Counted from the first letter of the stretch, positions 30,148 to 48,660 are shown. The stretch is DNA of 64,000 nt from Bacillota bacterium (GCA_017442735.1 JAFRZE010000072.1:185838-249837), one strand, 5' to 3'. The notes: generated by a model not told the origin, from the letters alone. A program made the numbers and translations.

Positions 30148-30160
30148 CTTTCATCCCTCC

Positions 30161-31252: not shown

Positions 31253-31290
31253 AGATTGCTGTCTCCTTATCCAATCTTTCTAATAAAGAA

Positions 31291-31320
31291 GGACCGGGCT
31301 GCCTAAGCAGCCTGGTCCTC
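31291..31320 (-). terminator. Intercistronic stem-loop between the SPFH and zinc-ribbon genes (attenuator or partial terminator)
   Basis: AGGACCGGGCTGCctaaGCAGCCTGGTCCT 13-bp stem; on the minus strand it is followed by UCUUUAUU. Confidence 0.45.
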
Positions 31321-31336
31321 ACTGGTTTCTGAATGA

Positions 31337-32665
31337 TCAGCCTAACTTAGCTCCGCATTCCGGGCAGAATTTGCCGAGAACTCCATCAGCCGGGGTATAT
31401 CCGCAGTTCGGGCAGCTGGCCACCGGTTTCGCCTTACCGCAGTTCATACAGAACTTGCCGGTATTCTGGGTGCCACAGTCCGGGCAGGTCCAGGTACCCG
31501 CGGGAGCGGGCTGCGGTTTGCCGCAGTTCATGCAGAACTTGCCGGTATTCTGAGTGCCGCACTCGCAGGTCCATCCGCTGGCGGGAGCGCCCATCGGGGC
31601 TGCGCCGGGAGCCGGCTGAGCGGCCTGCTGCTGATACTGAGGCTGCTGTTGCTGACCCATCGCGTAAAGATTCTGCGCGTTCATGCCGCCCATACCGCCG
31701 GCATTCATTGCCATACCCATGCCAAGGAATCCGGTCATAGCGCCAGCGGAGTTGCCGGCAGCGGCCTTCATCGCGTCGGCCTGAGCACCGACCAGCGTAG
31801 CGCCTGCCATGGTAGGATCTTTCAGCATCGCGGTTCTCTGCGCCTGTTTGATCAGTTCCTGATCTTCCTCAGGCAGCGTGACGGAACCAAGCGCGACAGA
31901 AACGACCTGCAGACCGCGAAGGTTGCCCCATTTCTCGGACAGCTCGCTGTTCAGAGCGGCTTCGAGTTCGGTGTTGTGGGTGACGATCTGGTTCGGACGA
32001 AGTTCCAGCTCAGAAAGTCTTCCGAAGGAAGGCTGCAGAGCGCTGACGAATTCGGGTTTCAGCTGAGTATCGATCTTGTCACGGGTATATTCCTGGGTGA
32101 CATTGCCGCAGACGTTGGTGTAGAAAAGCAGCGGGTTCGCGATCCGGTAGCTGTAAACACCGGAGCAGCGGACGGAAACATCGATATCCAGTCCGATCTT
32201 GGAATCGACGACACGGAAAGGAATGGGATTCGGGGTGCCGAATTTGTTGTTGATGATCTCTTTGGTGTTGAAGTAGTAAACTCTCTGATCTTTTCCGGTG
32301 TCACCGCCGTAGGTGAAACGTTTGCCGATCTCTTTGAAGGTCTGTTTAATGGATTCTCCGAGAGAACCTGCGAAGATGCTGGGCTCCAGAGAGGTATCAT
32401 ACGTGAACTGACCGGGCTCCGCACAAACTTCCACGATCTTGCCGTTTTCAACGATGATCATACACTGACCGTCATTGACCACGATACCGGAACCGTTGGA
32501 AATAACGTTATCAGAACCTTTGGTGTTGGAGGAACGGTTGCCGATTCTCTTCTGGCCCTTGGTAACGAGAACATTCTCGTCCATGGAATCACAGTAGAAG
32601 AACTCTTTCCACTGATCGGCAAGAACGCCGCCGACAGAACCGACAAGTGCAGAAATAAGACCCAT
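31337..32665 (-). CDS. SPFH/band-7 domain protein with Gly/Met/Gln-rich linker and three C-terminal zinc ribbons (YdjI-like)
   Basis: Layout parallels B. subtilis YdjI as recalled: SPFH core, then a low-complexity MGMAMNAGGMGGMNAQ region, then CxxCG...CxxCG ribbons (CECGTQNTGKFCMNCGK x2, CPNCG...CPECG). RBS AAAGGAG. Confidence 0.7.
   Translation of the reverse strand: MGLISALVGSVGGVLADQWKEFFYCDSMDENVLVTKGQKRIGNRSSNTKGSDNVISNGSGIVVNDGQCMIIVENGKIVEVCAEPGQFTYDTSLEPSIFAGSLGESIKQTFKEIGKRFTYGGDTGKDQRVYYFNTKEIINNKFGTPNPIPFRVVDSKIGLDIDVSVRCSGVYSYRIANPLLFYTNVCGNVTQEYTRDKIDTQLKPEFVSALQPSFGRLSELELRPNQIVTHNTELEAALNSELSEKWGNLRGLQVVSVALGSVTLPEEDQELIKQAQRTAMLKDPTMAGATLVGAQADAMKAAAGNSAGAMTGFLGMGMAMNAGGMGGMNAQNLYAMGQQQQPQYQQQAAQPAPGAAPMGAPASGWTCECGTQNTGKFCMNCGKPQPAPAGTWTCPDCGTQNTGKFCMNCGKAKPVASCPNCGYTPADGVLGKFCPECGAKLG
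31433..31570. repeat. Direct repeat of about 58 bp, two copies with an 80-bp period, encoding a duplicated zinc-ribbon unit
   Basis: cgcagttcatacagaacttgccggtattctgggtgcc... recurs as cgcagttcatgcagaacttgccggtattctgagtgcc... The encoded peptide GTQNTGKFCMNCGK is duplicated. Confidence 0.7.
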
Positions 32666-32862: not shown

Positions 32863-34437
32863 ATGAGCAAACCCATCGTACTGGTCGTCATGGATGGTGT
32901 CGGCGAGACTCCCGAGACCCTTGGCAACATGGTGCTCCGGGCCAATACCCCTACCCTGGACTGGTTCAAGGCAAACTGCCCCTGGCAGACGATCAAGGCA
33001 CACGGCGGCGCTGTCGGTCTGCCGACCGATGACGATATGGGAAACAGCGAAGTCGGACATAACGCTCTTGGCTGCGGCCAGATCTACTCCCAAGGCGCGA
33101 AACTGGTCAATGAATCCATCGAATCCGGTTCCATTTATCAGAGTGAGACCTGGAAAGACCTGGTAGGCTCTGTGGTCGAAAAAGGTACCGCACTTCACTT
33201 CATCGGCCTTCTGTCCGATGGCAACGTTCATTCGAACATCAGTCATCTTTTCGCCATGCTGAAAGAAGCCAAAGCGGAAGGAGTCAAACGTGCCAGAGTC
33301 CATATTCTTCTGGATGGTCGTGACGTTCCCGCCACCAGCGCGCCCGAATACATTAAGAAACTCGAAAACGTCCTTTCCGAACTTAATGACGATTCCTTTG
33401 ACGGGAAGATCGCTTCCGGCGGCGGCCGTATGTGCATCACTATGGACCGCTATCAGGCGAACTGGCCAATGGTCGAAGCCGGCTGGAACATCCATGTGCA
33501 TGGCGAAGGTCGTCAGTTCCCGTCTGCTCTTGAAGCGGTAGAGACCCTTCGCGCAGAAACCGGCGCCATCGATCAGGATCTTCCGGCTTTCGTTATCGCC
33601 AAGGACGGAAAACCCGTTGGCGCAATGCAGGACGGCGACAGCGTGATCCTCTACAATTTCCGCGGCGACCGCGCTCTGGAGCTTTCCATGGCCTTCGACG
33701 GCGATGCTTCCTTTGACAAATTTGACCGTGGCGTCATCCCGGCTGTCAAATATGCCGGCATGCTGGAATACGATGGTGATCTTCATATTCCGCACAATTA
33801 TCTGGTCAATCCGCCGCAGATCCGCGAGACACTGACCGAGCTTCTCGTCGCTCACGGTGTCAAGGAATATGCTGTTTCCGAGACCCAGAAATACGGCCAT
33901 GTCACGTACTTCTGGAACGGCAACCGCTCCGGCAAGGTTTCCGAAGAACTGGAAGACTACTGCGAGATCCCGAGCGATGTCCGCTCCTTCGATGAGTGCC
34001 CCTGGATGAAAGCGACCGAGATCGCTGATAAAGTGATCGAAGCTATCCAGAGCCACCAGTACGGCTTTATCCGCTGCAATTTCCCGAACGGCGATATGGT
34101 CGGCCATACCGGAAGTCTGGATGCTACCGAGATCGCTGTGGAAAGTGTCGATCTGCAACTGGCCCGCATCAAGAAAGTCGTCGATGAAGAAAACTGCATC
34201 CTGATCATCACCGCAGACCATGGCAACTCCGATCAGATGCTGGAGAAAAACAAGAAAGGCAAAGTGGAAGTTCGTACCGCACATAGTCTGAACCCTGTTC
34301 CGTTCATCATTTATGATAAAGATGAACGTCATGAGATGAAAGAAGGCGCTTTCGGACTCGCGAACGTGGCGCCTACCGTCGTCGGACTGATGGGGATCAA
34401 ACCCTATGACAGCTGGGTTGAAAGTATGCTGAAATAA
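32863..34437 (+). CDS. gpmI: 2,3-bisphosphoglycerate-independent phosphoglycerate mutase
   Basis: VVMDGVGE...GNSEVGHNALG (catalytic Ser region) ... ITADHGN are iPGM hallmarks. 524 aa. RBS GGAGGA. Confidence 0.95.
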   Translation: MSKPIVLVVMDGVGETPETLGNMVLRANTPTLDWFKANCPWQTIKAHGGAVGLPTDDDMGNSEVGHNALGCGQIYSQGAKLVNESIESGSIYQSETWKDLVGSVVEKGTALHFIGLLSDGNVHSNISHLFAMLKEAKAEGVKRARVHILLDGRDVPATSAPEYIKKLENVLSELNDDSFDGKIASGGGRMCITMDRYQANWPMVEAGWNIHVHGEGRQFPSALEAVETLRAETGAIDQDLPAFVIAKDGKPVGAMQDGDSVILYNFRGDRALELSMAFDGDASFDKFDRGVIPAVKYAGMLEYDGDLHIPHNYLVNPPQIRETLTELLVAHGVKEYAVSETQKYGHVTYFWNGNRSGKVSEELEDYCEIPSDVRSFDECPWMKATEIADKVIEAIQSHQYGFIRCNFPNGDMVGHTGSLDATEIAVESVDLQLARIKKVVDEENCILIITADHGNSDQMLEKNKKGKVEVRTAHSLNPVPFIIYDKDERHEMKEGAFGLANVAPTVVGLMGIKPYDSWVESMLK

Positions 34438-34492
34438 GTTCAGACAGAACGAAAGAAGATCCAGGCCTATATCGCGAAGCATCAGACAAAGA

Positions 34493-34532
34493 AAGGACTC
34501 GTGAGAAATCATTCCCACGAGTCCTTTTTCGT
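34493..34532. terminator. Rho-independent terminator between convergent gpmI and GH43 genes
   Basis: AAAGGACTCGTG-(loop)-CACGAGTCCTTTTTC. Confidence 0.75.
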
Positions 34533-34558
34533 TGTTGTTGGATGTCTGGCATCCTGTT

Positions 34559-36481
34559 CTATTCGCATCTTTGCACGATTCCGTGTGTGATACCCGCTTC
34601 GTTGAAGGTATCGACCCGGACAAAGTATTCCTGACCGGCGATCAGCGCGCCGATCTTCTGGACACCGCTCTGTGCTCTTAGTTTCCCTGCCATGACCATA
34701 TGGCTCAGGTACAGTTTATCTTCCGAGATGCCAAAAAGGATATTGTATCCGGTGACATTCTCCTCTTCCGGAAGCTTGATGACCACAGCCATGTCGATCT
34801 CATCAAGCCGGCGAAGAACGTATTCCGCTCGCTTAGGTTTTTCCACCGGGTCCTCTTCCTGCAGGCCGAATACCCGAAGTCCGGAAACTGCAGGATTCTG
34901 GCCGTATGGGACCCGCATATTGTAAAGACGCAGGTAACGGATCTTGAGTCCCTCTTCCCGGACGATCAGGTCGTGGGAAAGATCGGTCGTCGCACAGCTT
35001 TTATCCTCAATGATCTCAAAGGTCTCTCCGTCCACGGAACCGGCCAGTGTCCACTGGGTCTGCTGCAAGTGTTCATCGATATAGCGTGGCTGATCCCCGG
35101 TGCTCATCTTGCCCGGGACAGGAATATCCAGCTTTCCGTCCGCGAAATTGATCTGGATCGCTCGGACGTCCATGATCTTCCCAAGATCCAGTTTCAGCCA
35201 TTCATCCCTGCTGTTTCCTGATGCCTGCCACCAGGTGCGGACATCTTCATCTGCCGCCTTCTGCGGATCGGAACCTTCCATATAAGAAGAAGCAGTCATC
35301 TCTTTTTTGTAGCTGAGCAGCATCCATTCCGGATCCTGCCAGAGTTCTTCGTCTGAGAGCGCTTTAGAAGCTCGTCCTTCCGGAAGGCGCTGCGGCCAGT
35401 CACCGTACCTGGTATCGCAGACAAGGTCACCGTCTTTCGTATATCCGCCTCTCCATAATCCGACACGGCGCTCGAACATATGATGCATGCTGATCCGCAT
35501 CGTAGAGATATGCCACAGGCGATCATTCCTGTCTTCCATCGTCGATCCATGACCGGCCCCAGTCAGGAATCCGCCCGGTTTATAGCTGAAAGGATTGCTT
35601 GGTGCCAGTTCGAACGGGCCCATCGGATTGTCTGAAACATAGACCGCGTCCGCATAGGTGTTGTACTGGGTGCCGGGGCAGGCATACTGCAGATAATACT
35701 TTCCTTCATGCTTGTTCATCCAGGCGCCTTCTATATAAGGCTTGTCCGCGAACATCCCTTTGATCAGCGGCTGCAGCTTTTGGGGCAATAAAGCCGCCGG
35801 GATCTTCTGCTTCTTTAAAAAGGCCTGGTATTTCTCCTCGATCTCTTCGTCCGAAGCCGGCAGATGTGCGTGGTCATCTCCGACCCGTTCAAATCCTTTA
35901 TGGAAAGGATCTCCTTCGATCACGGCTTTATAATTTCCCATCGGGTTAGAAAGCGTCGCGCCGTAGGGCTTCATCGTGAAGGGATCCAGTTCCACACCAT
36001 AGATCGGGGTCATGTTGGAACAGCCCCAGTAGAAGTAAAGCCGTCCGTCGTCATCCTGGAACAGGTTGGGATCCCAGTATGGAAATGTGCCCGGAATCTT
36101 TTCATATGGTCCGTTCAGGATATCCTGTGTGCGGTAACGGTCGCATTTTTCATTTCGCCGGGACGCGCAGAAATAGACCCACTCCTCTGTTTTCCAGTTG
36201 TCGTTCTCATCCCTGGTCGGCGCCTTGATCACCCGCACGTCCGGCGCATAATCATACAGCGGCATATCCGCAGGAAGCGGATAACTTTCCCAGGTCACCA
36301 GATCGTCGGATACCCAGACAGACAAATTCATCGAAGCAAAGACATAATAACGGTCCTTGTAACAGATCATGGACGGATCCGCCGCTTCACGGTTGATGGT
36401 CAAGGCGCCCCCATTCCGCCTGTCCTTGTTGAACTGGTAATGGTAATTGATGTTGACTGGATTACAATAATATTTCGCCAT
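34559..36481 (-). CDS. Glycoside hydrolase family 43-like beta-propeller enzyme with C-terminal F5/8-type C (CBM32-like) domain
   Basis: N-terminal CNPVNINY...EAADPSMICYKDRYYVFAS (GH43 catalytic Asp region). C-terminal DVRTWWQASGNSRDEWLKLDLG discoidin motif. RBS AAGGAGGAT, 15 nt after the GH78 stop. Confidence 0.7.
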   Translation of the reverse strand: MAKYYCNPVNINYHYQFNKDRRNGGALTINREAADPSMICYKDRYYVFASMNLSVWVSDDLVTWESYPLPADMPLYDYAPDVRVIKAPTRDENDNWKTEEWVYFCASRRNEKCDRYRTQDILNGPYEKIPGTFPYWDPNLFQDDDGRLYFYWGCSNMTPIYGVELDPFTMKPYGATLSNPMGNYKAVIEGDPFHKGFERVGDDHAHLPASDEEIEEKYQAFLKKQKIPAALLPQKLQPLIKGMFADKPYIEGAWMNKHEGKYYLQYACPGTQYNTYADAVYVSDNPMGPFELAPSNPFSYKPGGFLTGAGHGSTMEDRNDRLWHISTMRISMHHMFERRVGLWRGGYTKDGDLVCDTRYGDWPQRLPEGRASKALSDEELWQDPEWMLLSYKKEMTASSYMEGSDPQKAADEDVRTWWQASGNSRDEWLKLDLGKIMDVRAIQINFADGKLDIPVPGKMSTGDQPRYIDEHLQQTQWTLAGSVDGETFEIIEDKSCATTDLSHDLIVREEGLKIRYLRLYNMRVPYGQNPAVSGLRVFGLQEEDPVEKPKRAEYVLRRLDEIDMAVVIKLPEEENVTGYNILFGISEDKLYLSHMVMAGKLRAQSGVQKIGALIAGQEYFVRVDTFNEAGITHGIVQRCE

Positions 36482-36496
36482 GCTGATCCTCCTTAC

Positions 36497-38806
36497 TTAC
36501 AGATCATAACTGCCTGCTTCCAGGCTGAACTTCTGTCCGTCCGGAAGAAAAACTTTTGCCAGGAGCCCTTCCGGGATCTCTATATGATATACTGCCTTCT
36601 TTTCTGTCCCGAAGGCAACTTTTTTATACTGCCAGCCGGATACGATCCTGCCTTTGGGCGAATGATATGTGGCCTTGGCATATCCGAGCGACGGGTCCGG
36701 ATGCGGCCGAATCTCTAGTTCATCATGCCGGTAGCGGATGCCGCAGACGCCTTTGATCAGCCATCCGCTGATAGCGCCGTAGCTGTAATGATTGAGCGAA
36801 TCATGGACCGTCCCGTCTTCCCGGATCCCGTCCCAGGTCTCCCAGATCGTGGTCGCTCCTTTTTCTACCGCGTAAAGCCAGCTCGGACATTCTTCCTGCA
36901 GAAGAAGACGGTAGGCCGTATCCGTATAGCCATGATCCGCCAGAACTTCCGTCAGGAAAGGAGTGGAAAGGAATCCTGTATTCAGATGATATCCGTTTTC
37001 CCTGACCTTTTCATCCAGGTCCGCGGCAGCCTGTCTTTCTTCCACAGCGTTCAGCAGACGGAAAGCGATCGGGCGGACATATTCACACTGTCGCTTACTC
37101 ACGATATGTCCATCCCTAAGTACCAGGTTCCGGTAAGCATTCCTGACCTTATAGCCAAGGTTCGTATACCGCTCTGCATCCTTCTCTTCCCCGAGGATCT
37201 CGGCGATCTTCCCAAGAAGAAGCGCGGAATGCGCGTAATAGGCGGTCGCGACTTCCGGCTGCCCGTGAAGCGAAGCCTGTTTCATGGTCTCCATGACATT
37301 CGCGCCCGGTTCGCTCCATTCACCATAGTCCATTCCTGTATCGATGATATATTTCCGGTAGGGATCTCTGCGGACCAACTCTTTGACGCGGGTCTTCTTT
37401 GCCCGTCTTTCCAGGAAGTCCACCCACTTTTTCATCATTTCATAGTTGTCACGCAGGACTTTTTCATCGCCGTAGACCTCATAGATCGCCCACGGTACCA
37501 GGATGGAAGCGTCTCCCCATCCTACGGAGGCGGAGAACATTTCACTGATCATCCCGGGCTTCCCGTTGATCGGAGCGATATAGGCCATCTTTCCGTCTTG
37601 ATGTTGGCAGAGTCGTACGTTCGCGAGCCACTTCTCCCAGACCTTCCGGCTGTTCATCAGGATCAAACCGGTCGGGGCAAATACACCCGCATCGCCGGTC
37701 CAGCCGGCCCGTTCACGGGTGGGACAGTCCGTAGGAATATCACAGAAGTTGCCTTTCATGCTCCAGATGCTGTTCTTAAACAGCCGGTTCACTTTCGGCT
37801 CGCCGCATTCAAAGAAAGCCGTCTGTTCCATATCCGAATAGACCGCGACCGCTTCTACCCGAATGTTTTCCAGTGACAGATCAGACTCGATCTTCGCGTA
37901 CCGGAAGCCGAACATGGAAAAACGCGGCTGATATACCTGGTCGCCGTCCTTGCAGATATATTCGATCTTCTGCGCGATCCCGCCGGATTTGTTCCGTTCT
38001 CCGGGCTGAAAATTCAGATTTGTGAAGTTACCGTTCTCATCCAGCGTTTCCCCATGGATCAGCGTAACGCGTTCCCCTGCCTTCGCTCCGGTGATGCGAA
38101 GCCTCGTGAATCCAGCCAGGTTCTGTCTGAAATCATAGACATATGACCCGTCCTTTGTCTTGAACAGATATCCTCCCATGATCTCCTTTTCCCGGACAGG
38201 GAGTGTATCCGTCCGGACTAGGGTATCGTATCCGAATCCGGCCTGTTTCAGGCCTTTTGCCGGCTTTGGCGCCTGTGTCAGAACGCTGGCCTTATGCCAC
38301 TTTCTGATCTCTTCTTTCCCGGCGTCATAGGTCTCGCCCAGTTCCAGGTCCGTCAGCAGGATCGGGCCGTCCATCGATCCTTCCCACGACTCATCAGTCA
38401 GACAGATCAGCGCATTTTCCGCATACATCTCCGCCAGCAGGGAAAGATCGGATCCAAAGAGATTCCTGGTCCCGTCGATTCCGTTGCATCCCCGGTACCA
38501 TCCGTCTCCGAGGATCACTTTCATCTCATTTTCACCGGCTTTCAGCAGATGCTGCACCTCATAGACCTGGTACTGCAGACGCTTGTCATATTCATCACAG
38601 CCAGGTGTAAGAACATCTTCGCTGATCTTCTGACCGTTCAGATAAGCTTCATAAAGGCCATGGGCCGTAATAAACAGTTCCGCTTTTTCCGGCACGACCT
38701 CTACCCTAAACTCTTTGCGCAGAAATCCGGCCCCTGGCCTTTGTTCAGGATCGGCCGCCTTTTCTTCCGGCGTGATCCATCGTGCTCTCCACTGATGCTT
38801 GTCCAT
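36497..38806 (-). CDS. alpha-L-rhamnosidase (GH78)
   Basis: ARWITPEE N-terminus, HGLYEAYLNGQKI, six-hairpin catalytic domain motifs; 769 aa, typical size for a bacterial GH78. Confidence 0.8.
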   Translation of the reverse strand: MDKHQWRARWITPEEKAADPEQRPGAGFLRKEFRVEVVPEKAELFITAHGLYEAYLNGQKISEDVLTPGCDEYDKRLQYQVYEVQHLLKAGENEMKVILGDGWYRGCNGIDGTRNLFGSDLSLLAEMYAENALICLTDESWEGSMDGPILLTDLELGETYDAGKEEIRKWHKASVLTQAPKPAKGLKQAGFGYDTLVRTDTLPVREKEIMGGYLFKTKDGSYVYDFRQNLAGFTRLRITGAKAGERVTLIHGETLDENGNFTNLNFQPGERNKSGGIAQKIEYICKDGDQVYQPRFSMFGFRYAKIESDLSLENIRVEAVAVYSDMEQTAFFECGEPKVNRLFKNSIWSMKGNFCDIPTDCPTRERAGWTGDAGVFAPTGLILMNSRKVWEKWLANVRLCQHQDGKMAYIAPINGKPGMISEMFSASVGWGDASILVPWAIYEVYGDEKVLRDNYEMMKKWVDFLERRAKKTRVKELVRRDPYRKYIIDTGMDYGEWSEPGANVMETMKQASLHGQPEVATAYYAHSALLLGKIAEILGEEKDAERYTNLGYKVRNAYRNLVLRDGHIVSKRQCEYVRPIAFRLLNAVEERQAAADLDEKVRENGYHLNTGFLSTPFLTEVLADHGYTDTAYRLLLQEECPSWLYAVEKGATTIWETWDGIREDGTVHDSLNHYSYGAISGWLIKGVCGIRYRHDELEIRPHPDPSLGYAKATYHSPKGRIVSGWQYKKVAFGTEKKAVYHIEIPEGLLAKVFLPDGQKFSLEAGSYDL

Positions 38807-38808
38807 CT

Positions 38809-39657
38809 TCAGATCCTTTCATTCAGCCACTGCCCGCTGATTTCCATACTTTTCAGCGGAGACTTTTCGATCCAGTTTCTGTGTGTCTCCAGGACAGCCG
38901 CCTGTACATCAAGGCTCTTTGCCATCTCCAGAAGCTTCTCCAGCGGCATATTGCCACAACCCAGCTCGACGGAATCTGACTTGATGATCGGCGTCATGAC
39001 CTGCCCGCTGATCCGGCTGCCGCGATCCGTTACATGCCAGAGTGTTACTCGTTTTCCGACTTTTTCCATCAGCCGGACGACATCTATCCCTGCTTCGGCC
39101 GGCCAGTAGGTATCCAGTTCAAAACTAACAAGATCCGGATCCGTATTCGCCAGGATATAGTCATAGGCGGTAAGGTCCTGCCCTTTGATCTTCAGAAACT
39201 CCACATTATGATTGTGATACAGAAGGCTGATTCCCTCTTCCAGAAGCGCTTTGCCGACTGTATTCAGATCATCACAGAGCCCTTGGAGCGTGGTTTCACT
39301 GGTATAATCAAATCGGTACATGCCTGTGATCACGATCCATTCCGTTCCGAAGGATTTCGCTTCTTCCGCCGCTTTCTTCGGGTCTCGTTTCAAAGATCCC
39401 AGATCATAGTGAAGGCTGATCACACTAAGACCTGCTTCGTTTACCAGTTTTTTCCAGTCATAATTCCCGCCCTTACCGGTCGGCATACCGGCCAGTTTTG
39501 TCAGGACACGTACCAGAAAGGAAGTCGGATGGATCTGAAAGCTGTTCAGTTCGATCCCGTCATATCCGGCCGCTTTGATCTTCTTTAATGTCTCTAACGC
39601 AGTCTGCTCGGAACCTGTCACGGTCCCGAGCATGATCTGTTGGATTCCTTTTTTCAT
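38809..39657 (-). CDS. Xylose-isomerase-like TIM-barrel protein (sugar phosphate isomerase/epimerase family) embedded in the glycosidase operon
   Basis: 282 aa; GYDGIELNSF and HNHNVEF metal-site-like motifs. Translationally coupled to GH2 upstream (ATGA) and to GH78 downstream (2-nt gap). Confidence 0.7.
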   Translation of the reverse strand: MKKGIQQIMLGTVTGSEQTALETLKKIKAAGYDGIELNSFQIHPTSFLVRVLTKLAGMPTGKGGNYDWKKLVNEAGLSVISLHYDLGSLKRDPKKAAEEAKSFGTEWIVITGMYRFDYTSETTLQGLCDDLNTVGKALLEEGISLLYHNHNVEFLKIKGQDLTAYDYILANTDPDLVSFELDTYWPAEAGIDVVRLMEKVGKRVTLWHVTDRGSRISGQVMTPIIKSDSVELGCGNMPLEKLLEMAKSLDVQAAVLETHRNWIEKSPLKSMEISGQWLNERI

Positions 39658-41867
39658 TTTTTGATTCCCTGCAGAACTCTGTTGAGTCCTTTGATACTTT
39701 CCTCATCCGCGCCGGCCTGTTTGAGCAGGCTGAGCATGGTCATACGTGCCAGCATACGCTGCAGCGCCGGATTATCCTTCACACTGTCCGCGACATCTCC
39801 GCGGGAAGCCGATGATTTTGCCATCATAGCTTCCACGACTGCTCCGGCCTGCGGATGTGCCCGCAGTTCTCCGAGAGTATCCTGCACGGAGAAGGCTTCC
39901 GGATCAAAATCCGCGTCGAACCAGTTCACGACCTGTGAAGACTTATTGTAGATATAATCGGGATTCGGTTCAGAGGCTTTCCGTACGGTGATTTCATCAG
40001 ACAGATCTTTGCTGACTGCTTTGATCGTATGTTCGCCAAAGATCGGTACGGTAAACTCGAAGACTTTGCTTCCGCTCTTCTTTTCGAATAGTTTTCCGTC
40101 CACATAGAGTGCCACTTCCGACTGATTGGAATAGACCTTGATTTTCGTTTCATTTTCCGCACGGTCCGTATAGCGGCTTCCGCACAGGTGGACGAACGGC
40201 TCGGTCCTGTTCCAGTAGGCTTTATACAGGTAGAAAGCATCCTTCCGGATCTTCCGGTCAAAGGTCACCAGACCTTTCTGGTTCTCGCCGTGCTTGCCAC
40301 CCTCATCCCGTCCGTCAGCCGCGAAGTCGAACATGTTCCAGACATGGGTCGCCCACAGCCACGGCCTCTCTTCGATCATTCGCAGGATATGCTCATGGTA
40401 GACACATTCATATTCTTCCGTGTAATCGCCGCGTTCCGGGCGGGAGGAATGGAAGGCAACATTCGTATCGGCGCCATATTCCGAAAAGCCGATCGCGCGG
40501 TCCGGATATTTCGCGTGGTACTCATCAAAGAACTCGTCATTCTGATCAAGTTCCCCGAGATACCAGCCGAAGTACAGATTGTAGCTGTTCACATCCGGAA
40601 TCTCCAGGATGGGACTGTCGATCTCCAGCATAAACACGTTTGCCATCGTGGTGGGCCGGGTCGGATCCAGACGGTGGCAAAGATCATTCAGCATCCGGTG
40701 GTTATCGAGCAGTTCTTCATTTACGCTGCTGGCAGCCGTGATCTCGTTCGAAAGACCCCAGACCGCGATCGACGGATGGTTGTAGTTCTGTACGATCAGC
40801 TCTTCCATCTGAGAAAGTGTATTCTCGGTGCCGCCGGACATATGCATGGTGATGTACGGGATCTCCGCCCATACGACCATACCCGTCTCATCGCACAGAT
40901 CGTAGAACTCCTGCGCATGCTGGTAGTGGGCCAGACGGATCGTATTCGCTCCGACTTCCCGGATCAGGGCCATGTCTTCCTGATGCTCTTTCAGGCTGAG
41001 TGCGTTGCCGAGTCCCTTACGGTCCTGATGACGGCTCACCCCACGCAGCGGATAGGCTCTTCCATTCAGGAAAAAGCCTTCGCTGTTGATCTCGTAGCTG
41101 CGGCAGCCATAACGGGATGCGATCTCATCGCCGGAGCTTAATGTGACTTTCATCGTGTAAAGATACGGATCTTCGATCCCATCCCACAGGTGGACCGGAT
41201 CCAGATGGAACTGGGCTGTGGCAAAGCCGTCCCCTACCCGGATCGTCTCGCTCTGGCCGGCAGTCTCAAAGGTCGCGTATACGGTCTCATCGCCCTTGTT
41301 TTCCACGTACGCAGTCACCATCACATCACAGGTCTGCTTTTCCAGATCCACTCTGGGTGTGATCCGAAGGCCGCTGGTCCCCATATAGCCCAGTGCAAAA
41401 TGCACGGCCGGGACCTTGATCAGCCGGACGCTCCGGTAGATGCCTCCATAAAAGGTGAAGTCCGCCTTCTGGGGATAGACTGTCTGGTTATCTTCGTTGG
41501 ACACAGCTACCGAAAGCATATGCGCCGCTCCGTCCGCGAAACGGGTCATGTCCGCACGGAACCGGCTGTAACCGCCTTCATGGCGCAGGATCTTCTCTCC
41601 GTCTAAATATAGGTCGCAGCTCATCGCCACGCCGTCGAACTCGAGATAAACTCTGCCGCCTTCTTCCGCAGGCGCCAGGTCTTCCGCGGTCAGTTCACGC
41701 ACGTACCAGCAGATGCCGCGGTAGTAATCATTGCCGCCGTCCTGTCCGTCGACAGCGTTCCAGGTATGCGGAAGGTCCACCGGCTGGGCCTCAATCACTG
41801 CTTCTTTAATCGAAGCGGCGGTCTTTTCAAACCGCCACCCCTGATTCAGATCAAAAATTTTACGCAT
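39654..41867 (-). CDS. Glycoside hydrolase family 2 (beta-galactosidase/beta-glucuronidase-like)
   Basis: Sugar-binding N-terminus DLPHTWN, acid/base WGLSNEI, nucleophile GFSEYGAD; 737 aa. Overlaps the transporter gene by 8 nt. Confidence 0.75.
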   Translation of the reverse strand: MRKIFDLNQGWRFEKTAASIKEAVIEAQPVDLPHTWNAVDGQDGGNDYYRGICWYVRELTAEDLAPAEEGGRVYLEFDGVAMSCDLYLDGEKILRHEGGYSRFRADMTRFADGAAHMLSVAVSNEDNQTVYPQKADFTFYGGIYRSVRLIKVPAVHFALGYMGTSGLRITPRVDLEKQTCDVMVTAYVENKGDETVYATFETAGQSETIRVGDGFATAQFHLDPVHLWDGIEDPYLYTMKVTLSSGDEIASRYGCRSYEINSEGFFLNGRAYPLRGVSRHQDRKGLGNALSLKEHQEDMALIREVGANTIRLAHYQHAQEFYDLCDETGMVVWAEIPYITMHMSGGTENTLSQMEELIVQNYNHPSIAVWGLSNEITAASSVNEELLDNHRMLNDLCHRLDPTRPTTMANVFMLEIDSPILEIPDVNSYNLYFGWYLGELDQNDEFFDEYHAKYPDRAIGFSEYGADTNVAFHSSRPERGDYTEEYECVYHEHILRMIEERPWLWATHVWNMFDFAADGRDEGGKHGENQKGLVTFDRKIRKDAFYLYKAYWNRTEPFVHLCGSRYTDRAENETKIKVYSNQSEVALYVDGKLFEKKSGSKVFEFTVPIFGEHTIKAVSKDLSDEITVRKASEPNPDYIYNKSSQVVNWFDADFDPEAFSVQDTLGELRAHPQAGAVVEAMMAKSSASRGDVADSVKDNPALQRMLARMTMLSLLKQAGADEESIKGLNRVLQGIKK

Positions 41868-43386
41868 TCGCTTCTGCCTCTTTCAATTCCTTCTTTTTCT
41901 CTTCGATCCGTTTCTGGACTTCGACCATTTCCGCCTTATCCAGTTTGCAGCTTCTCATGGCCCACAGGGTGCAGATCCATCCAAGGATCGCCAGGCCGTA
42001 GCGCAGGAACATGGATACCCAGAAAATGCTTCCGGTCGGGGTGTCGCCAGGCTGAGGCAGGGTCTCGGTATAACCGATCAAAGCTACACAGCCGGTCGCG
42101 ATCAGCGCGGAGAAAGAAGAAACGATCTTGTCTACCAGTGAATAGGTGCCGGATACGACAGCCGGGATATACTTGCCGGAACGATCCAGTTCGTAGTCGA
42201 TGACATCAGCCATGAAAGCAGCGCCCGCCGTGGTGCCGGCCATCATGAATCCGTTGCCGACCAGCGTCAGCAGGATGTACAGGATCATAGTGATTCCAAA
42301 ACTTGCAATGGTATGAGTGCCGACAGTATACCATACGACCGCAAAGAACGCAATCATGGCAAGATTGGCGAAGATACAGTTCCTGGCCCAGGTCACGATG
42401 GATTCCTTGTTGCCGTGTTTACCGCAGTAGCGCGCACCGATGATGGCAAAGATGATGGAAGGCAGCATACCGCCCACAGAAAGGTAGGTTGCGATGGTCA
42501 TATTGCCGATCAGGATACCGGAAAGCATGGTGCCCACGATGGCGGCGCCGCCGGCCTGCTGGGCGATCTTGTCGGAAGAAGCCGCGATGATGTAGGACTG
42601 CAGGGGTTTGTTCTTGGAAAGGACGTTCCACATATCCTTGAATTTCAGGCGCTCGTTTGCTTTATTGGTGCCCTTGAAGTTTTCCGGTTTATCATACTGG
42701 GAAACACCGATGCAGCAGAGGATCACGCCCAGAAGGGAAACGACCACGGTCACTGTCGCGGCAGCCGTCAGATAGGCCTGGGAGTAGTTCACGGAGTAGC
42801 CGCCGGCTTCCGTCATGACGATCTGTCCATATTTGGGCAGAAGGACCGTATTCAGGATGATCGTAAAGGCCATGGGAACGATATAGTTAAAGACTGTATT
42901 CCATACGCCGACGGTAGGACGCTGTTTGGGGTCATTAGTGATCAGCGGGCCGATCGTCTGCGCTGTCATATTGACGATCGTATAACCGATGACGTACAGC
43001 ATGTAGGTAGCCAGGAACATCCCGATCCCAAATCCTTTGCTGGCAGCCCAGGAGAACATCAGCATGATGCCAAGCGACTGGACAGCCCAGCCAAGAAGCA
43101 TCAGAGGACGGATCTTTCCAAAGCGGGTATTCACCCGGTCATACAGGAATGCAAGCAGCGGGTCAGTGATCGCGTCAAAGACACGGGTAAAGGTCAGCAG
43201 ACCTCCGACGATCAGGGTGGAAATGCCAAAGCCGATGCTGGCAGCGTAGGAAGCCTGGCCGATCAGCGTGTAGATCGCCATACCGTTCAGGGCATTCATC
43301 GCAACGAGGATGATCTGCCAGAGTTTCGCGCGGCGGTATTCAACACCGTCGATCTGGGACTGAGTAAGTTTGGGTTCTTTCGCCAT
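41860..43386 (-). CDS. MFS transporter, glycoside-pentoside-hexuronide (GPH):cation symporter family
   Basis: 12 TM helices. Long hydrophilic C-terminal coiled segment, as in some GPH members. RBS GAGGAGAAAA. Confidence 0.75.
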   Translation of the reverse strand: MAKEPKLTQSQIDGVEYRRAKLWQIILVAMNALNGMAIYTLIGQASYAASIGFGISTLIVGGLLTFTRVFDAITDPLLAFLYDRVNTRFGKIRPLMLLGWAVQSLGIMLMFSWAASKGFGIGMFLATYMLYVIGYTIVNMTAQTIGPLITNDPKQRPTVGVWNTVFNYIVPMAFTIILNTVLLPKYGQIVMTEAGGYSVNYSQAYLTAAATVTVVVSLLGVILCCIGVSQYDKPENFKGTNKANERLKFKDMWNVLSKNKPLQSYIIAASSDKIAQQAGGAAIVGTMLSGILIGNMTIATYLSVGGMLPSIIFAIIGARYCGKHGNKESIVTWARNCIFANLAMIAFFAVVWYTVGTHTIASFGITMILYILLTLVGNGFMMAGTTAGAAFMADVIDYELDRSGKYIPAVVSGTYSLVDKIVSSFSALIATGCVALIGYTETLPQPGDTPTGSIFWVSMFLRYGLAILGWICTLWAMRSCKLDKAEMVEVQKRIEEKKKELKEAEANA

Positions 43387-43507
43387 GATGTTTTCTCCTC
43401 TTAAAATAGATCACATGAGTAGTAACGGTTTTATTGAGTCCATTATAAAACGTCCTTCTTTTCTATTCGTCCTGTAATTCGCTTTTTTATCCATTTTTTT
43501 CATGCGC

Positions 43508-43536
43508 TTTACAATCATAAGGAATTCGCGTATAAT
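43508..43536 (+). promoter_or_regulatory. Promoter TTTACA-17-TATAAT for the AraC regulator, in a divergent control region
   Basis: TTTACA at 43508-43513, 17-nt spacer, TATAAT at 43531-43536; the ATG is at 43567. Confidence 0.55.
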
Positions 43537-43566
43537 ATCTTTAATAACAGGACAAGGAGAATTGTC

Positions 43567-44796
43567 ATGACAGACCGGGTAAAACTCTTTTTCGAGATGG
43601 TCCGCTGCATCTATCCCATCCATTTCTGGGAATACGATGCAGACCTTTCTCTGCAGACTGCCGATTCCCAGGCGGAACAGTTCGGATCCGATATCATCCG
43701 GCTTCTTTCTATTTCTGATGTACTTAAGCAGCAGTTATTGTCTCAAAAGCGTTGTCCATTTCTACTCGAAACCGGGTACGGGGTTTTATTTCTTTGCGAG
43801 GTCTCCTATGAAGGATCAACCCCGGAAGGCCTGTATCTGTTCGGTGGTTTATATACGGGAAGCACTTCCAACCTGATGATACAACAGAGACTGGCGAACG
43901 CGCCCATCATGGGACGGCTTCGGCAGGAAGTCCTGACCGCGATGCAGCAGCTTCCGATCATTCCAACTTCCACCCTGCTCCAATACGCGGTCATGCTGCA
44001 CTACGCTCTTACCGGAGAAACGATCTCGACTGCTGACATCCTGTCAGTCAGCAGCATGGATGAATCTGCTTTTCCTGATCCAGCTTCTTCATCCCATTTT
44101 CAGGATACCCGCGGCACAGATTCCCATTTTGGCGTATGGGAGTCGGAAAAAGCGCTCCTCCGGATGATCCGAGAGGGAAATCGGGATTATCGAAAAGCTC
44201 TGTCCCGATCCATGAGCCTCAGCTCCGGTGTCCGGGCCGATACAGGTGATCCTGTCCGGCATTCGAAGAATAACAGTCTCACTTTACTGACCCTGGTCGT
44301 ACGCGCAGCGATCGAAGGAGGCTTAAGTCCCGAGATCGCCTATTCCCTGAACGACCACTATGCTGCCATGATCGAGCACGCTCGTTCCATCTCCGCGGTC
44401 ACGATGCTTTCCGGGCAGCTGCTGGATGATTTCATAGAAAGAGTCCATGACGTCCGGGACCGTTCCGGTACCTCCTCCAGCATCCAGAATGCCTGTCACT
44501 ATATCGACACCCATCTTTCCGAACCGCTCACCATCCATGACCTGGCTTCCCAGGCCGGTTATGCCGACTACTATTTCTCCCAGAAATTCAAAAATGAGAC
44601 AGGGCAGACCGTCAGCGAATACCTTTGTGACAAGCGGATCGAAAAAGCGATGGAACTGCTTCGCGATCCGGCAATCGACCTTTCTGACGTCCAGGAAATG
44701 GTAGGGTTCCAGAGCCGAAGCCGTTTCTATGATCTCTTCAAGCAAAAGACGGGGCTTTCGCCCGCTCAGTACCGCGCAAGACCTGTACTGTTTTGA
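43567..44796 (+). CDS. AraC family transcriptional regulator, probable regulator of the divergent glycosidase operon
   Basis: C-terminal AraC HTH (LTIHDLASQAGYADYYFSQKFKNETGQTVSEY...SRFYDLFKQKTGLSPAQYR) with a roughly 300-aa N-terminal sensor domain. RBS AAGGAGAA. Confidence 0.8.
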   Translation: MTDRVKLFFEMVRCIYPIHFWEYDADLSLQTADSQAEQFGSDIIRLLSISDVLKQQLLSQKRCPFLLETGYGVLFLCEVSYEGSTPEGLYLFGGLYTGSTSNLMIQQRLANAPIMGRLRQEVLTAMQQLPIIPTSTLLQYAVMLHYALTGETISTADILSVSSMDESAFPDPASSSHFQDTRGTDSHFGVWESEKALLRMIREGNRDYRKALSRSMSLSSGVRADTGDPVRHSKNNSLTLLTLVVRAAIEGGLSPEIAYSLNDHYAAMIEHARSISAVTMLSGQLLDDFIERVHDVRDRSGTSSSIQNACHYIDTHLSEPLTIHDLASQAGYADYYFSQKFKNETGQTVSEYLCDKRIEKAMELLRDPAIDLSDVQEMVGFQSRSRFYDLFKQKTGLSPAQYRARPVLF

Positions 44797-44870
44797 TTGC
44801 AAAAACCATTCCTGCGTGATACAATCAATTCTAATATTAGTTATACGTGACAGAAAGGATCCTCCGGATC

Positions 44871-45494
44871 ATGGCAAAACTGTATTTCAAATTTGGAGCG
44901 ATGGGCTCATCCAAGACAGCTCAGGCGCTGATGACCAAATTCAATTATGAAGAAAAAGGCAAAAGCGTCCTGCTGATCAAGCCTGCGACCGACACCCGTG
45001 ACGATACCGTGGATGAAAGCGGCAATATCCATACGGTCGTTCGTTCGAGGATCGGTCTTTTCCAGGAAGCCCTTGCTGTAGGCCCGTCTGTTGATATCCG
45101 CGAGTTCTATCATCGGCAAAATGAACAGGATCATCTGGACGTAGTCATCTGCGACGAGTGTCAGTTTCTGACGCCCGAGCAGGTCAGCCAGATGAAGGAT
45201 CTCGCCGATCTGGACGATGTACCGGTGCTCTGCTTCGGGCTTCGCGCGGATTTCCAGACAAAACTTTTTCCCGGATCCAAGCGGTTATTTGAGATCGCGG
45301 ATTCCATTACGGAAATCAAATCGGTCTGCCGCTGCGGAAGAAAAGCGACTGTCAACGCCCGTTTCGACGATAACGGACAGATCATCGTCGAAGGCGCGCA
45401 GGTCGTTCTTGGCGGCAATGACCGCTATGAAGGTCTGTGCTACAACTGCTATCGTAAACTGATCCGTGAAAGCGGACAAAAACTTATTTATTAA
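44871..45494 (+). CDS. tdk: Thymidine kinase
   Basis: P-loop [15 protein letters not shown]-terminal zinc ribbon CRCGRKA...CYNCY. Start at MAKLYF (RBS GAAAGGA) rather than the upstream GTG. Confidence 0.9.
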
Positions 45495-45508
45495 TATCCA
45501 AGGAGGTC

Positions 45509-46180
45509 ATGATGGAACTGAAAGAGATTCTCTCAAAAGTCGACCATACCCTGCTCTCCCAATCCGCGACCTGGGATGATATCCGGGCAATCGTCGACGA
45601 CGGCATCAAGTATGAAACGGCTTCGGTCTGTATCCCTGCATCCTATGTGAAACAGGCAGCCGAATACGCGAACGGACGTGTCAAGATCTGCACGGTCATC
45701 GGATTCCCGAACGGCTATTCCACCACGCCTGTCAAGGTATTTGAGGCGGCAGACGCTATTCGGAACGGAGCTGACGAAGTCGATATGGTCATCAATATCG
45801 GCTGGCTGAAAGACAAACGCTATGAAGATCTCCTGAATGAGATCCGTGATATCAAAGCCGCCTGTGAAGATCATATCCTGAAGGTCATTATCGAGACCTG
45901 CCTGCTGACGGAAGAAGAAAAGATCAAAATGTGCGAGATCGTCTCCGCTTCCGGCGCAGACTATATCAAAACTTCCACCGGATTCTCCACCGCCGGCGCG
46001 ACCAAGGAAGATGTCGCCCTGTTCGCGAAATACGTCGCTCCGCATGTGAAGATCAAAGCGGCCGGCGGCATCAGTTCGCTGCAGGATGCGGAAGACTTCG
46101 TCAATCTGGGTGCTTCCCGCCTTGGGACCAGCCGCATCGTGAAGATCGTCAAGGGTCTGGATACCGGATCCGGATATTAA
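45509..46180 (+). CDS. deoC: Deoxyribose-phosphate aldolase
   Basis: VDHTLLS, Schiff-base lysine region YIKTSTGF; 223 aa. RBS AAGGAGGT. Confidence 0.9.
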
Positions 46181-46199
46181 TGAGGAGGTAATCAATTCC

Positions 46200-46964
46200 A
46201 TGGCTAATCTTTATCCTACTCCCCACATCAACGCAAAACCGGAAGACTTTGCCAGAACTGTCCTGATGCCGGGCGACCCGCTCCGCGCCAAGTTTATTGC
46301 CGAGACTTTCCTGGAGAACCCGGTCCTTGTGAATAATGTCCGCGGCGTCAACGGCTATACCGGCACCTTTGAAGGCGCCCGCGTGACTGTCATGGCCAGC
46401 GGAATGGGCATTCCTTCGATCGGCATCTATTCCTATGAACTTTTCAATTTCTTCGGTGTGGAAAATATCATCCGCATCGGTTCTGCCGGCGCGCTGGACC
46501 TGGGCATCCATGTCCGTGACCTGGTCTTCGGTATGGGCGCCTGCACAAACAGCAACTATGCCCACCAGTTCCACCTGCCCGGCGCCTTTGCCCCGATCTG
46601 TGATTTCGACCTCCTGAAGACTTCCACCAGGATCGCGGAAGAACTCGGACTTCGCTTCCATGTGGGTAACCTGCTTTCTGCCGATACCTTCTACGGCGAC
46701 GATCTTGGCATCCCTGAGGCCATGCAGGCCAATGCCGCCTGGGCCAAGATGGGTGTCATGGCAGCTGAGATGGAAGCTGCGGGCCTTTATATGAATGCAG
46801 CCCGCGCGAACAAACCCGACGCACCTCGCCGCGCGCTCGCGATCTGCACCATCTCCGACCACATCCTGACCGGAGAAGCCACGACTGCGGAAGAACGCCA
46901 GAACACTTTCACCGATATGATGAAAGTCGCTCTGCGTACCGCCAAGGAGTTTGACCATGAGTAA
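46200..46964 (+). CDS. deoD: Purine nucleoside phosphorylase (DeoD-type, PNP/UDP family 1)
   Basis: TPHINA...VLMPGDPLRAKFIAETFLE...VNNVRG...GMGIPS closely follows the E. coli DeoD pattern. Confidence 0.9.
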   Translation: MANLYPTPHINAKPEDFARTVLMPGDPLRAKFIAETFLENPVLVNNVRGVNGYTGTFEGARVTVMASGMGIPSIGIYSYELFNFFGVENIIRIGSAGALDLGIHVRDLVFGMGACTNSNYAHQFHLPGAFAPICDFDLLKTSTRIAEELGLRFHVGNLLSADTFYGDDLGIPEAMQANAAWAKMGVMAAEMEAAGLYMNAARANKPDAPRRALAICTISDHILTGEATTAEERQNTFTDMMKVALRTAKEFDHE

Positions 46965-48114: not shown

Positions 48115-48134
48115 AAACGGAGGGGAGAATCACC

Positions 48135-48569
48135 ATGACGAACGAACAGCTCTGTCAGGAAGCTCTTCAGGCCATGAAGAAAGCTTATGCTCCCTATTCC
48201 GGCTACAAGGTAGGGGCAGCGCTTCTTTTGGCGGACGGGAAAGTCTATACCGGATGCAACATCGAAAACTCCTCATTTACTCCGACCATCTGCGCGGAAC
48301 GTACCGCTTTTTTCAAAGCCGTCAGCGAACGAAAAGAAGAGTCTCTGCCGGAATTTGTCCGGATCGCGGTATGCGGAGGTGAAGGTGGGAAGATCACCGG
48401 CGCTTTTCCTCCCTGCGGTGTGTGCCGGCAGGTCATGAGCGAATTCTGTACAGACAGTTTTGAGATTCTGATGATCACGTCGGCCGATCCCGTGCAGTAT
48501 GAAACATGCCTGCTGCCTGACCTTCTGCCATTTCGTTTTTCACCGGATTATCTTGAAAACAAGGGTTGA
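48135..48569 (+). CDS. cdd: Cytidine deaminase
   Basis: Zinc motif CAER...PCGVCRQ; 144 aa, the homotetrameric type. Confidence 0.9.
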   Translation: MTNEQLCQEALQAMKKAYAPYSGYKVGAALLLADGKVYTGCNIENSSFTPTICAERTAFFKAVSERKEESLPEFVRIAVCGGEGGKITGAFPPCGVCRQVMSEFCTDSFEILMITSADPVQYETCLLPDLLPFRFSPDYLENKG

Positions 48570-48594
48570 TTCTTCGACAGTTTTCTATTAAAAT
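48566..48594 (+). promoter_or_regulatory. Internal promoter TTGATT-17-TAAAAT upstream of bmpA
   Basis: TTGATT at 48566-48571 overlaps the cdd stop. 17-nt spacer, TAAAAT at 48589-48594; the ATG is at 48661. Confidence 0.5.
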
Positions 48595-48660
48595 ATAGTG
48601 GATATAGAGCGACTCACCCTCGCTTTAATCAAATACTACTCTTATAAGGAGAGAAAACAC

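Follow-up and report, generated by a model that had tools for sequence, protein, structure and literature searches.

Which glycosides, and by what route, does a compact operon encoding one symporter, three glycoside hydrolases (GH) and a xylose-isomerase-like TIM-barrel protein take apart? The question is raised by a locus within a 64,000-nucleotide stretch of DNA from a Bacillota bacterium (GCA_017442735.1 JAFRZE010000072.1:185838-249837; hereafter "the window", with positions counted from its first letter), where the sequence and its open reading frame (ORF) listing reveal five consecutive minus-strand ORFs at 34559-43386 and one divergent plus-strand ORF. An earlier note on this DNA had described a tightly coupled rhamnoside-utilisation operon with a divergent AraC regulator, meant for small rhamnose-containing glycosides such as rutinosides, neohesperidosides or rhamnogalacturonan oligomers. 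The answer that seems probable to us, although well short of certain, keeps the rhamnose, and shifts the emphasis to glucuronic acid (GlcA): an AraC-controlled cytoplasmic deglycosylation of small imported glycosides in which beta-linked GlcA would be decorated with alpha-L-rhamnose (Rha) and probably arabinofuranose (Araf).

This answer hinges on the product of the second operon gene, previously noted as a generic exo-glycosidase, which is, as far as its sequence can tell, a beta-glucuronidase (GUS) of the group that binds flavin mononucleotide (FMN). The N-terminal, middle and TIM domains of a GH2 enzyme follow one another in order (PF02837, PF00703 and PF02836 at 44.5, 34.1 and 114.4 bits, respectively; these and all the other Pfam matches listed here for the operon and AraC proteins exceed the curated cut-offs), and the best PDB match, full-length and colinear, is 7KGZ (1113 bits, 482 of the 725 aligned residues, or 66%, being identical), which is followed by 6MVG, 8GES/8GET and 6MVH, with 6MVF coming sixth. 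7KGZ is the Rh3 GUS of Roseburia hominis, crystallised with FMN ~30 Å away from the active site (PMC8748916). The catalytic glutamate pair, E375 (within SNE) and E463 (within SEYG), and the N529-Q-K531 signature, an N-x-K motif of the type that binds the carboxylate of glucuronate, are identical to those of 7KGZ in the alignment, and N529-x-K531, E375 and E463 are kept in 58-60 out of the 61 GH2 homologues found in related loci. In Fp2GUS, Tyr154 and Phe179 stack on the FMN in a surface groove (bioRxiv paper); when carried over by the offset from the 6MVF match, a mapping that is only approximate, their equivalents would be Y161 and A186/Y187, and among the homologues Tyr occupies position 161 in 44/61, while an aromatic residue is found at position 187 in 57/61. 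The 66% identity to the characterised Rh3 GUS thus makes the hydrolysis of beta-D-glucuronides by this enzyme a reasonable expectation, and the presence of beta-GlcA in its substrate is all but certain.

The company that this enzyme keeps in other genomes points the same way. Relatives of the TIM-barrel protein were sought in one genome per species, which resulted in at least 583 stretches, the best 80 of which (56-79% identity) were compared as loci; these come from Lachnospiraceae (Roseburia, Agathobacter, Blautia, Acetatifactor, Murimonas, Petralouisia), Oscillospiraceae, and many metagenome-assembled genomes (MAGs) of rumen/herbivore origin. Within the 38 best loci flanked by 8 kb or more on each side, GH78 occurs in 36, GH1 in 35, GH2 in 34, and MFS and GH43 in 33 each, and an unsupervised clustering of all the ORFs of the 80 loci returned exactly seven conserved families, namely TIM, GH2, GH78, GH43, MFS, GH1 and AraC (the homologous AraC gene, encoding ~400 aa, being seen in 47 of the 80). 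The families next in frequency are TetR (16 loci), MatE (14), SDR (12), NAD-epimerase-like (6), GH3 (6), UxuA (4), FGGY kinase (4) and RhaA (4), and further additions in some loci are a GH35/42-like gene and GH106. The TIM gene has GH2 upstream in 29 loci, often with a stop/start overlap, and GH78 downstream in 37, while GH43 or GH1 adjoins it in most of the remaining ones; an apparently different gene after GH2 in one locus (L003) turned out to be the TIM gene as well, with its start called elsewhere. As the gene set is kept despite the gene order being shuffled among the related loci, co-function seems to be what has been selected, and not merely inherited linkage. In one locus (L006), AraC and GH1 are divergent from MFS-GH2-TIM-GH78-MatE, and its GH2 (7769-9973) matches the crystallised Rh3 GUS at 98% identity (97-98% for the GH2s of the metagenome/MAG loci L006, L007 and L015), so that the characterised enzyme itself belongs to such a cassette. 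Among the bacteria in which the cassette was seen, Blautia celeris NSJ-34, Murimonas intestini DSM 26524, Petralouisia muris and Roseburia hominis can be cultured. No GH1 is encoded in the operon or anywhere in the 64-kb window, and the closest relatives (L005, L012-L014) are also devoid of it; the operon of the window is the GH1-less form of the seven-gene set. The MatE and TetR genes of the relatives could possibly serve aglycone efflux.

The two other hydrolases fit a decorated glucuronide. The predicted alpha-L-rhamnosidase is an unambiguous member of GH78, with all four bacterial alpha-L-rhamnosidase domains (PF08531, N-terminal; PF05592, concanavalin-like; PF17389, (alpha/alpha)6 catalytic, E = 1e-99; and PF17390, C-terminal; the four scores are 334.5, 120, 63.1 and 33.4 bits), PDB matches to 3W5M (SaRha78A of Streptomyces avermitilis, 398 bits) and 6GSZ (349 bits), and 474 bits against the NCBIfam model rhamnosid_Stmyc, which is under the cut-off of that model. 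The last operon gene encodes a GH43 domain (Glyco_hydro_43, 84 bits) joined to a CBM32 (F5_F8_type_C, 38.8 bits), and its presumed catalytic Asp/Asp/Glu triad of base, pKa modulator and acid (D35, D137 and E251 in the motifs ADP, WDPN and IEG) is invariant in the homologues from the loci. Foldseek places BT_3662 at the top of its structural matches, with BT_3675 also among the closest, both of which are GH43_34 alpha-L-arabinofuranosidases acting on gum-arabic arabinogalactan protein (AGP) and rhamnogalacturonan II (RG-II), while other GH43_34 members are beta-D-galactofuranosidases (PMC8939339). The protein would thus appear to resemble the arabinofuranosidase-type GH43s the most, a likeness that does not fix its CAZy subfamily.

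The organization of the operon (Table 1) is, for the most part, what the earlier note had claimed. Its tight coupling is evident from an overlap of 8 nt between the MFS and GH2 genes, an overlap of 4 nt (ATGA) between GH2 and TIM, a gap of 2 nt between TIM and GH78, and a gap of 15 nt, containing a GGAGG ribosome-binding site, between GH78 and GH43; a good ribosome-binding site also precedes the start of the symporter gene, and the terminator lies 31 nt past the GH43 stop codon, between convergent genes. The divergent AraC-family regulator is likewise there, 180 bp away on the other strand, with a tandem C-terminal helix-turn-helix (HTH_18, PF12833, 70 bits, and HTH_AraC, PF00165, 69 bits, at residues 313-405), and the predictions of a rhamnosidase-family GH78 (no assignment to a non-rhamnosidase family emerged from Pfam) and of a GH43+CBM32 protein held up as well. 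Residues 1-300 of the regulator have no Pfam match, hence no cupin-type AraC_binding domain was seen; its best NCBIfam match, TIGR04094, reaches 121 bits, so that it resembles the TIGR04094-type long AraC regulators at a score below the 200-bit cut-off of the model. A sigma-70-like promoter for the AraC gene (11/12 match) is located at 43508-43536 (+), while the promoter scan found no consensus promoter for the five-gene operon in the 180-bp divergent region, which would fit activator dependence. The same region has weak inverted repeats only and no convincing operator repeats, and no Rfam riboswitch or leader family was found within 34000-45000.

Table 1. Features of the operon, its control region and the rhamnose catabolic cluster of the window
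Feature	Position	Strand	Source
MFS_2 GPH-type cation symporter, 508 aa, operon gene 1	41860-43386	-	Pfam
Predicted GH2 beta-glucuronidase, FMN-binding "no-loop" GUS group, 737 aa, predicted cytoplasmic	39654-41867	-	Pfam, PDB
Xylose-isomerase-like TIM barrel, 282 aa, resembling 3-keto-glycoside 1,2-lyases / O-glycoside beta-eliminases	38809-39657	-	Pfam, Foldseek, profile
Predicted GH78 alpha-L-rhamnosidase, 769 aa, predicted cytoplasmic	36497-38806	-	Pfam, PDB
GH43 five-bladed propeller + CBM32 + C-terminal beta-sandwich, 640 aa, predicted cytoplasmic	34559-36481	-	
AraC/XylS-family regulator, 409 aa, divergent from the operon	43567-44796	+	Pfam
Divergent control region, 180 bp	43387-43566		sequence
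Intrinsic terminator, 16-bp stem, 7 GC pairs, T-rich tail	34527..34492	-	terminator scan
L-rhamnose catabolic cluster (AraC regulator, rhamnulokinase, non-RhaA isomerase, rhamnulose-1-P aldolase)	14829-19660		Pfam, NCBIfam

The G+C content of the operon is that of its surroundings, and the operon recurs with 100% identical proteins on independent metagenome contigs, which rules out an artefact of assembly; at NCBI, the identical GH43 protein is MBQ7059962.1, from an uncultured Bacillota MAG, and orthologous versions of the operon (79-99% protein identity) keep the same flanks. The names of the samples and MAGs, to the extent that these can be relied upon, suggest the gut of ruminants as the origin. 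Uptake by a symporter, with no ATP-binding cassette (ABC) or SusCD genes in the operon, also agrees with what had been proposed before: the first operon gene matches MFS_2 at 123 bits (cut-off of 27), and scores 109 bits against TIGR00792 gph (cut-off of 231), 98 bits against MelB and 44 bits against the glucuronide transporter model of NCBIfam. As none of the four operon enzymes has a signal peptide, the pathway would be a cytoplasmic one supplied through the symporter, in line with small glycosides being imported.

The remaining operon protein, the TIM barrel, had been taken for an isomerase, whereas in sequence and fold it is closest to the 3-keto-beta-glycoside 1,2-lyases and O-glycoside beta-eliminases. 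Its Pfam match is AP_endonuc_2 (xylose-isomerase-like TIM barrel, 50.3 bits), and no NCBIfam model fits (IolE, 42 bits), with a lenient E-value adding nothing for either this protein or GH43. An AF2 (AlphaFold2) model of it (pLDDT 85.6) has 8TCD/8TCR (Alistipes AL1), 8TCT (Bacteroides thetaiotaomicron BT1) and 8BVK (AtOGE) as its top Foldseek matches (E ~4e-17, TM ~0.75), the identity of 8TCD and 8TCT as lyases being taken from the PDB titles given by Foldseek; phmmer and profile searches of PDB returned 8TCS, 8TCD and 8TCT, then 3L23, 3OBE and 8BVK (profile E = 7e-22), and the motifs YHNHxxEF, ELDxYW and HxxDR are common with AL1 and BT1. These lyases and eliminases are marked by a Mn2+ site (His/Glu, Asp, His, Glu) and a catalytic His in an HxH motif. 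AtOGE binds its metal through H132, D163, H189 and E233, and has H134 as the catalytic histidine, plus E161 (PMC10628242); the spacing of these (H132, H134, E161, D163, H189, E233) is matched by H148, H150, E180, D182, H208 and E257 of the operon protein, and all of the homologues (69/69) keep E36, H83, H148, H150, E153, E180, D182, H208, E257 and H259 unchanged. The subfamily forms a discrete clade (74 cluster representatives at E<=1e-30). Most likely, then, the protein is a metal-dependent enzyme that would abstract a proton next to a carbonyl, i.e., a beta-eliminase/lyase whose target would be an intermediate of the same substrates, either a sugar or a keto-sugar, an isomerase role being less likely. 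No oxidoreductase is encoded in the operon according to Pfam, however, and the all-ORF clustering found no C3-dehydrogenase or hydratase conserved in the 80 loci, although such a dehydrogenase makes the 3-keto substrate in every known system of this kind; with no dehydrogenase partner, the lyase analogy may not hold, which is why the protein is termed "lyase-like" here, and is not filed as a 3-keto-glycoside lyase.

Put together, the proposed pathway would run as follows: the GPH/MFS_2 symporter would import a small glycoside or oligosaccharide, the GH78 enzyme would then take off a terminal alpha-L-rhamnose in the cytoplasm, the GH43+CBM32 enzyme would remove a pentose/furanose cap, and the GH2 beta-glucuronidase would then cleave the exposed beta-glucuronide bond, with the rhamnose passing on to a rhaB/isomerase/rhaD cluster ~20 kb away. 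What the sequences show is which genes there are and how closely they are coupled, to which families they belong, that their active sites are kept, that the enzymes are cytoplasmic, and that the gene set is conserved between species; the order of these steps, like the substrate itself, the inducer, and the reaction of the TIM-barrel protein, is something that we infer. The separate rhamnose cluster had already been pointed out in the earlier note, and it does exist, its rhamnulokinase (15934-17388) matching TIGR02627 at 552.6 bits (cut-off of 527.95) and its rhamnulose-1-P aldolase (18830-19660) matching NF002963 at 320 bits (cut-off of 170), but its isomerase is not RhaA: the gene at 17391-18812 (+) matches L-fucose/L-arabinose-isomerase C-terminal domains only (FucI/AraA-like), has sulfoquinovose isomerase SftI as its best NCBIfam match (50 bits, cut-off of 700), and may be a non-orthologous L-rhamnose (6-deoxyhexose) isomerase. 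This cluster, which is not a part of the operon, probably consumes the rhamnose released by it, a link that would be functional in nature. That some of the related loci also encode RhaA, UxuA, SDR and a kinase resembling rhaB, taken together with the rhamnose cluster of the window, indicates that both Rha and GlcA would be used as carbon sources.

Two classes of compounds are candidates for the substrate. Acidic oligosaccharides of AGP/gum arabic (Rha-a1,4-GlcA-b1,6-Gal, Araf-a1,4-GlcA) are favoured by the GH43_34-like enzyme and by the GH35/42-like gene seen in some loci, whereas triterpenoid-saponin or flavonoid glucuronides are favoured by the MatE, TetR, GH1 and GH3 genes of the relatives. 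Ulvan and bacterial exopolysaccharides were set aside, as there is no sulfatase or lyase in the operon and the setting is that of a herbivore gut. Several observations weigh against a GlcA/Rha/Araf glycoside pathway as drawn here: the GH43 protein is only 16-27% identical to the solved GH43s; the symporter scores below the curated GPH cut-off; the operon is without the GH1 of most relatives, and could therefore differ from them in the range of its substrates; the C3-dehydrogenase needed by the closest homologues of the TIM-barrel protein is absent from both the operon and the 80 related loci; and the FMN-binding GUS enzymes have so far been characterised only on glucuronides of drugs/xenobiotics.

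How do other readings of the substrate fare? The one closest to the earlier note makes generic exo-glycosidases of GH2 and GH43 and a sugar isomerase of the TIM barrel, with Rha-Glc disaccharides of flavonoids (rutinosides, neohesperidosides) or oligomers of rhamnogalacturonan as the targets; it has in its favour that GH78 enzymes commonly hydrolyse naringin, rutin and hesperidin, that the GH1 of most related loci, and the GH3 of some, could remove glucose, and that MatE/TetR in the relatives fit aglycone handling. Rutinosides and neohesperidosides, however, need a beta-glucosidase, and neither GH1 nor GH3 is encoded in the operon or the whole window, which makes rutinosides the less likely substrate; rhamnogalacturonan oligomers would need GH28, GH105 or polysaccharide lyase (PL) enzymes, and genes for these are absent too. 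As the GH2 protein, furthermore, has the glucuronide-specific NxK and its two-thirds identity to a characterised GUS, and the TIM barrel has no close isomerase relative, we deem this reading unlikely. Should the GUS identity be granted, the operon might still chiefly scavenge glucuronides excreted by the host (bile pigments, steroids, drugs) like the classical gus operons do, its other enzymes being incidental; the GPH family includes glucuronide carriers, and FMN-binding GUS enzymes hydrolyse the glucuronides of triclosan, mycophenolate and regorafenib efficiently in vitro (PMC8748916, PMC9377255). Yet GH78, GH43 and GH1 target plant sugars that are not in host glucuronides, and are nevertheless linked to GUS in 33-36 of the 38 well-flanked loci, the closest relatives are rumen/herbivore MAGs, and no GusR-type TetR repressor is found at the operon, all of which leaves host scavenging as a very improbable main purpose, and decorated plant glucuronides as the preferred reading.

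The TIM-barrel protein invites more than one explanation of its own. It might be a true 3-keto-glycoside 1,2-lyase whose dehydrogenase is encoded elsewhere, e.g., by the GFO/IDH/MocA genes at 11355-12557 or 5206-6375, and which cleaves bonds that hydrolases cannot, as in the Alistipes AL, B. thetaiotaomicron BT and Agrobacterium GlycDH/OGE pathways. AL1, BT1 and AtOGE are indeed its best structural and sequence matches, the metal ligands and catalytic His of AtOGE have invariant, equally spaced counterparts in it, and one of the two GFO-family dehydrogenases of the window is levoglucosan-dehydrogenase-like and lies beside a paralogous TIM barrel; on the other hand, these GFO genes are 25-35 kb off and have their own TIM partner, the seven families conserved among the 80 loci include no dehydrogenase or hydratase, and the identity to the lyases is only ~25%, so this version, too, seems improbable. 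A non-orthologous enzyme that isomerises or epimerises a monosaccharide once it has been released (GlcA to fructuronate, or L-rhamnose to L-rhamnulose) would be in keeping with a superfamily that has many aldose-ketose isomerases/epimerases (seen among the lower-ranked Foldseek matches), with the few related loci that have UxuA and SDR and no obvious UxaC in the sampled flank, and with a window rha cluster devoid of RhaA; the nearest relatives of the protein are lyases and not isomerases, though, its gene is linked to glycosidases and not to monosaccharide catabolic genes, and in four loci RhaA occurs together with it, so it is no substitute for RhaA there, which renders the isomerase explanation quite unlikely. 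The co-occurrence of RhaA with the TIM gene in some loci is also why L-rhamnose isomerase was rejected as a general role of this family.

A bolder version of the preferred lyase-like role, and a decidedly doubtful one, is that the protein performs non-hydrolytic glycoside cleavage without the canonical NAD-dependent C3-dehydrogenase, either because the carbonyl is already there on the substrate or because the FMN-binding GUS is its partner. In the former case, the dihydro-hydroxy-methyl-pyranone (DDMP) acetal of legume saponins might, for example, be eliminated to maltol, or, alternatively, the C5 proton of a uronate might be abstracted and its 4-O substituent expelled; in the latter, the TIM-barrel protein, the gene of which is translationally coupled to that of GUS here and in many other loci, would work together with that enzyme, the surface-bound flavin acting as the oxidant. 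Were this true, dehydrogenase-free cleavage would be a new enzymatic activity, and the natural role of the FMN-binding GUS clade would be as part of a pathway for plant Rha/GlcA glycosides.

Some other parts of the window deserve a mention in their own right. At 9710-11335 (-), an AP_endonuc_2 TIM barrel is fused to a PD40/TolB-like propeller; it is 27% identical to the operon TIM barrel, and its HxH is replaced by HNE. The adjoining GFO/IDH/MocA dehydrogenase (11355-12557, -) matches levoglucosan dehydrogenase best (150 bits), an AraC regulator (12607-13422, +) and a MatE exporter (13383-14828, +) lie in the same neighbourhood, and 9710-14828 is possibly a separate oxidative glycoside-cleavage module; the second GFO dehydrogenase, at 5206-6375, is also on the minus strand. 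Adjoining the operon is a minus-strand cluster (29344-32665) that borders it in L001, L002 and L005 too: an SPFH/Band-7 protein that has a double zinc ribbon is encoded at 31337-32665, a protein with a zinc ribbon at 30161-31252, and one with a TPM domain at 29344-30147. A second TPM-domain protein is encoded at 62392-63714 (-). The AraC gene is followed downstream by a long cluster for nucleoside salvage/catabolism (44847-55569, +), unrelated to the operon, which contains, judging by L005 synteny and Pfam, thymidine kinase, DeoC, purine/uridine phosphorylase, phosphopentomutase, cytidine deaminase, a Bmp lipoprotein, an ABC ATPase with permeases, pyrimidine-nucleoside phosphorylase and uridine kinase.

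Further away, a D-Ala-D-Ala dipeptidase (Peptidase_M15, VanX-like; 20894-21754, -) sits within 20268-23028, where two ORFs overlap or abut it: one (21754-23028, -) encodes 424 aa and has a "NADase translocation F5/8 type C" domain at its C-terminus, and the other, of 209 aa, is without a Pfam match. Two overlapping ORFs of 426 and 554 aa at 2168-5109 (-) have no Pfam match either; their neighbours encode, at 1498-2145, a response regulator of the LuxR/GerE type and, at 195-1448, a radical-SAM/SPASM protein that contains a SEC-C motif. A sulfatase gene (60883-62391, -, SGSH_C domain) overlaps a carboxylesterase-family gene (59558-60913, -), and the two (59558-62391) may be another glycan- or ester-processing pair.

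What, then, is new about the operon, and what is it like? All of its parts come from known families, and the locus type is already known: the Gram-positive polysaccharide utilisation loci (gpPULs) of Roseburia and Eubacterium rectale combine GHs, a GPH/MFS transporter and an AraC regulator with no SusCD (PMC5320581). No description of the conserved neighbourhood of FMN-binding GUS (MFS_2, TIM, GH78, GH43, GH1, AraC), nor of the dehydrogenase-less, beta-eliminase-like TIM clade, was found in the accessible literature. FMN-binding GUS enzymes have been studied as reactivators of the glucuronides of mycophenolate, regorafenib and triclosan; the cassette points to dietary plant glycosides of GlcA and Rha as their natural substrates, and it flags a discrete beta-eliminase-like clade without the usual dehydrogenase partner.

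With the FMN-binding GUS enzymes (Rh3, 7KGZ; Rh2, 6MVH; R. gnavus, 6MVG; F. prausnitzii, 6MVF), the operon GH2 shares the domain order, a C-terminal domain of ~120 aa, the NxK and the catalytic Glu pair, and it would, by the approximate mapping given above, have aromatics at the FMN-stacking positions; the published enzymes are treated as drug/xenobiotic reactivators. The operon TIM barrel has the fold, the motifs, the metal ligands and the HxH catalytic His in common with AL1 (8TCD), BT1 (8TCT) and AtOGE (8BVK), the loop after beta-7 being disordered both in AtOGE and in the operon protein; it differs from these in that the known lyases share their operons with a hydratase and a dehydrogenase acting at C3 (GFO/IDH/MocA or GlycDH), whereas its own partners, in all of the 80 loci, are glycoside hydrolases only. 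The AGP systems of Bacteroides and Bifidobacterium match the operon in the activities that its proposed pathway would require, i.e., removal of a Rha cap from GlcA, a beta-glucuronidase and a GH43_34-type arabinofuranosidase (PMC8939339), but are extracellular or periplasmic, rely on SusCD or ABC import, and employ GH145, PL27, GH39 or GH43_24; as everything in the operon is cytoplasmic behind a single symporter, it could use no more than small oligosaccharides that other organisms set free. A "mannose/rhamnose gpPUL 1" with GH2, GH78, MFS and "isomerase" genes is reported to be present in all R. intestinalis strains, its mannose/rhamnose assignment having been made from family labels alone (PMC11913394), and it is a possible homologue of the operon.

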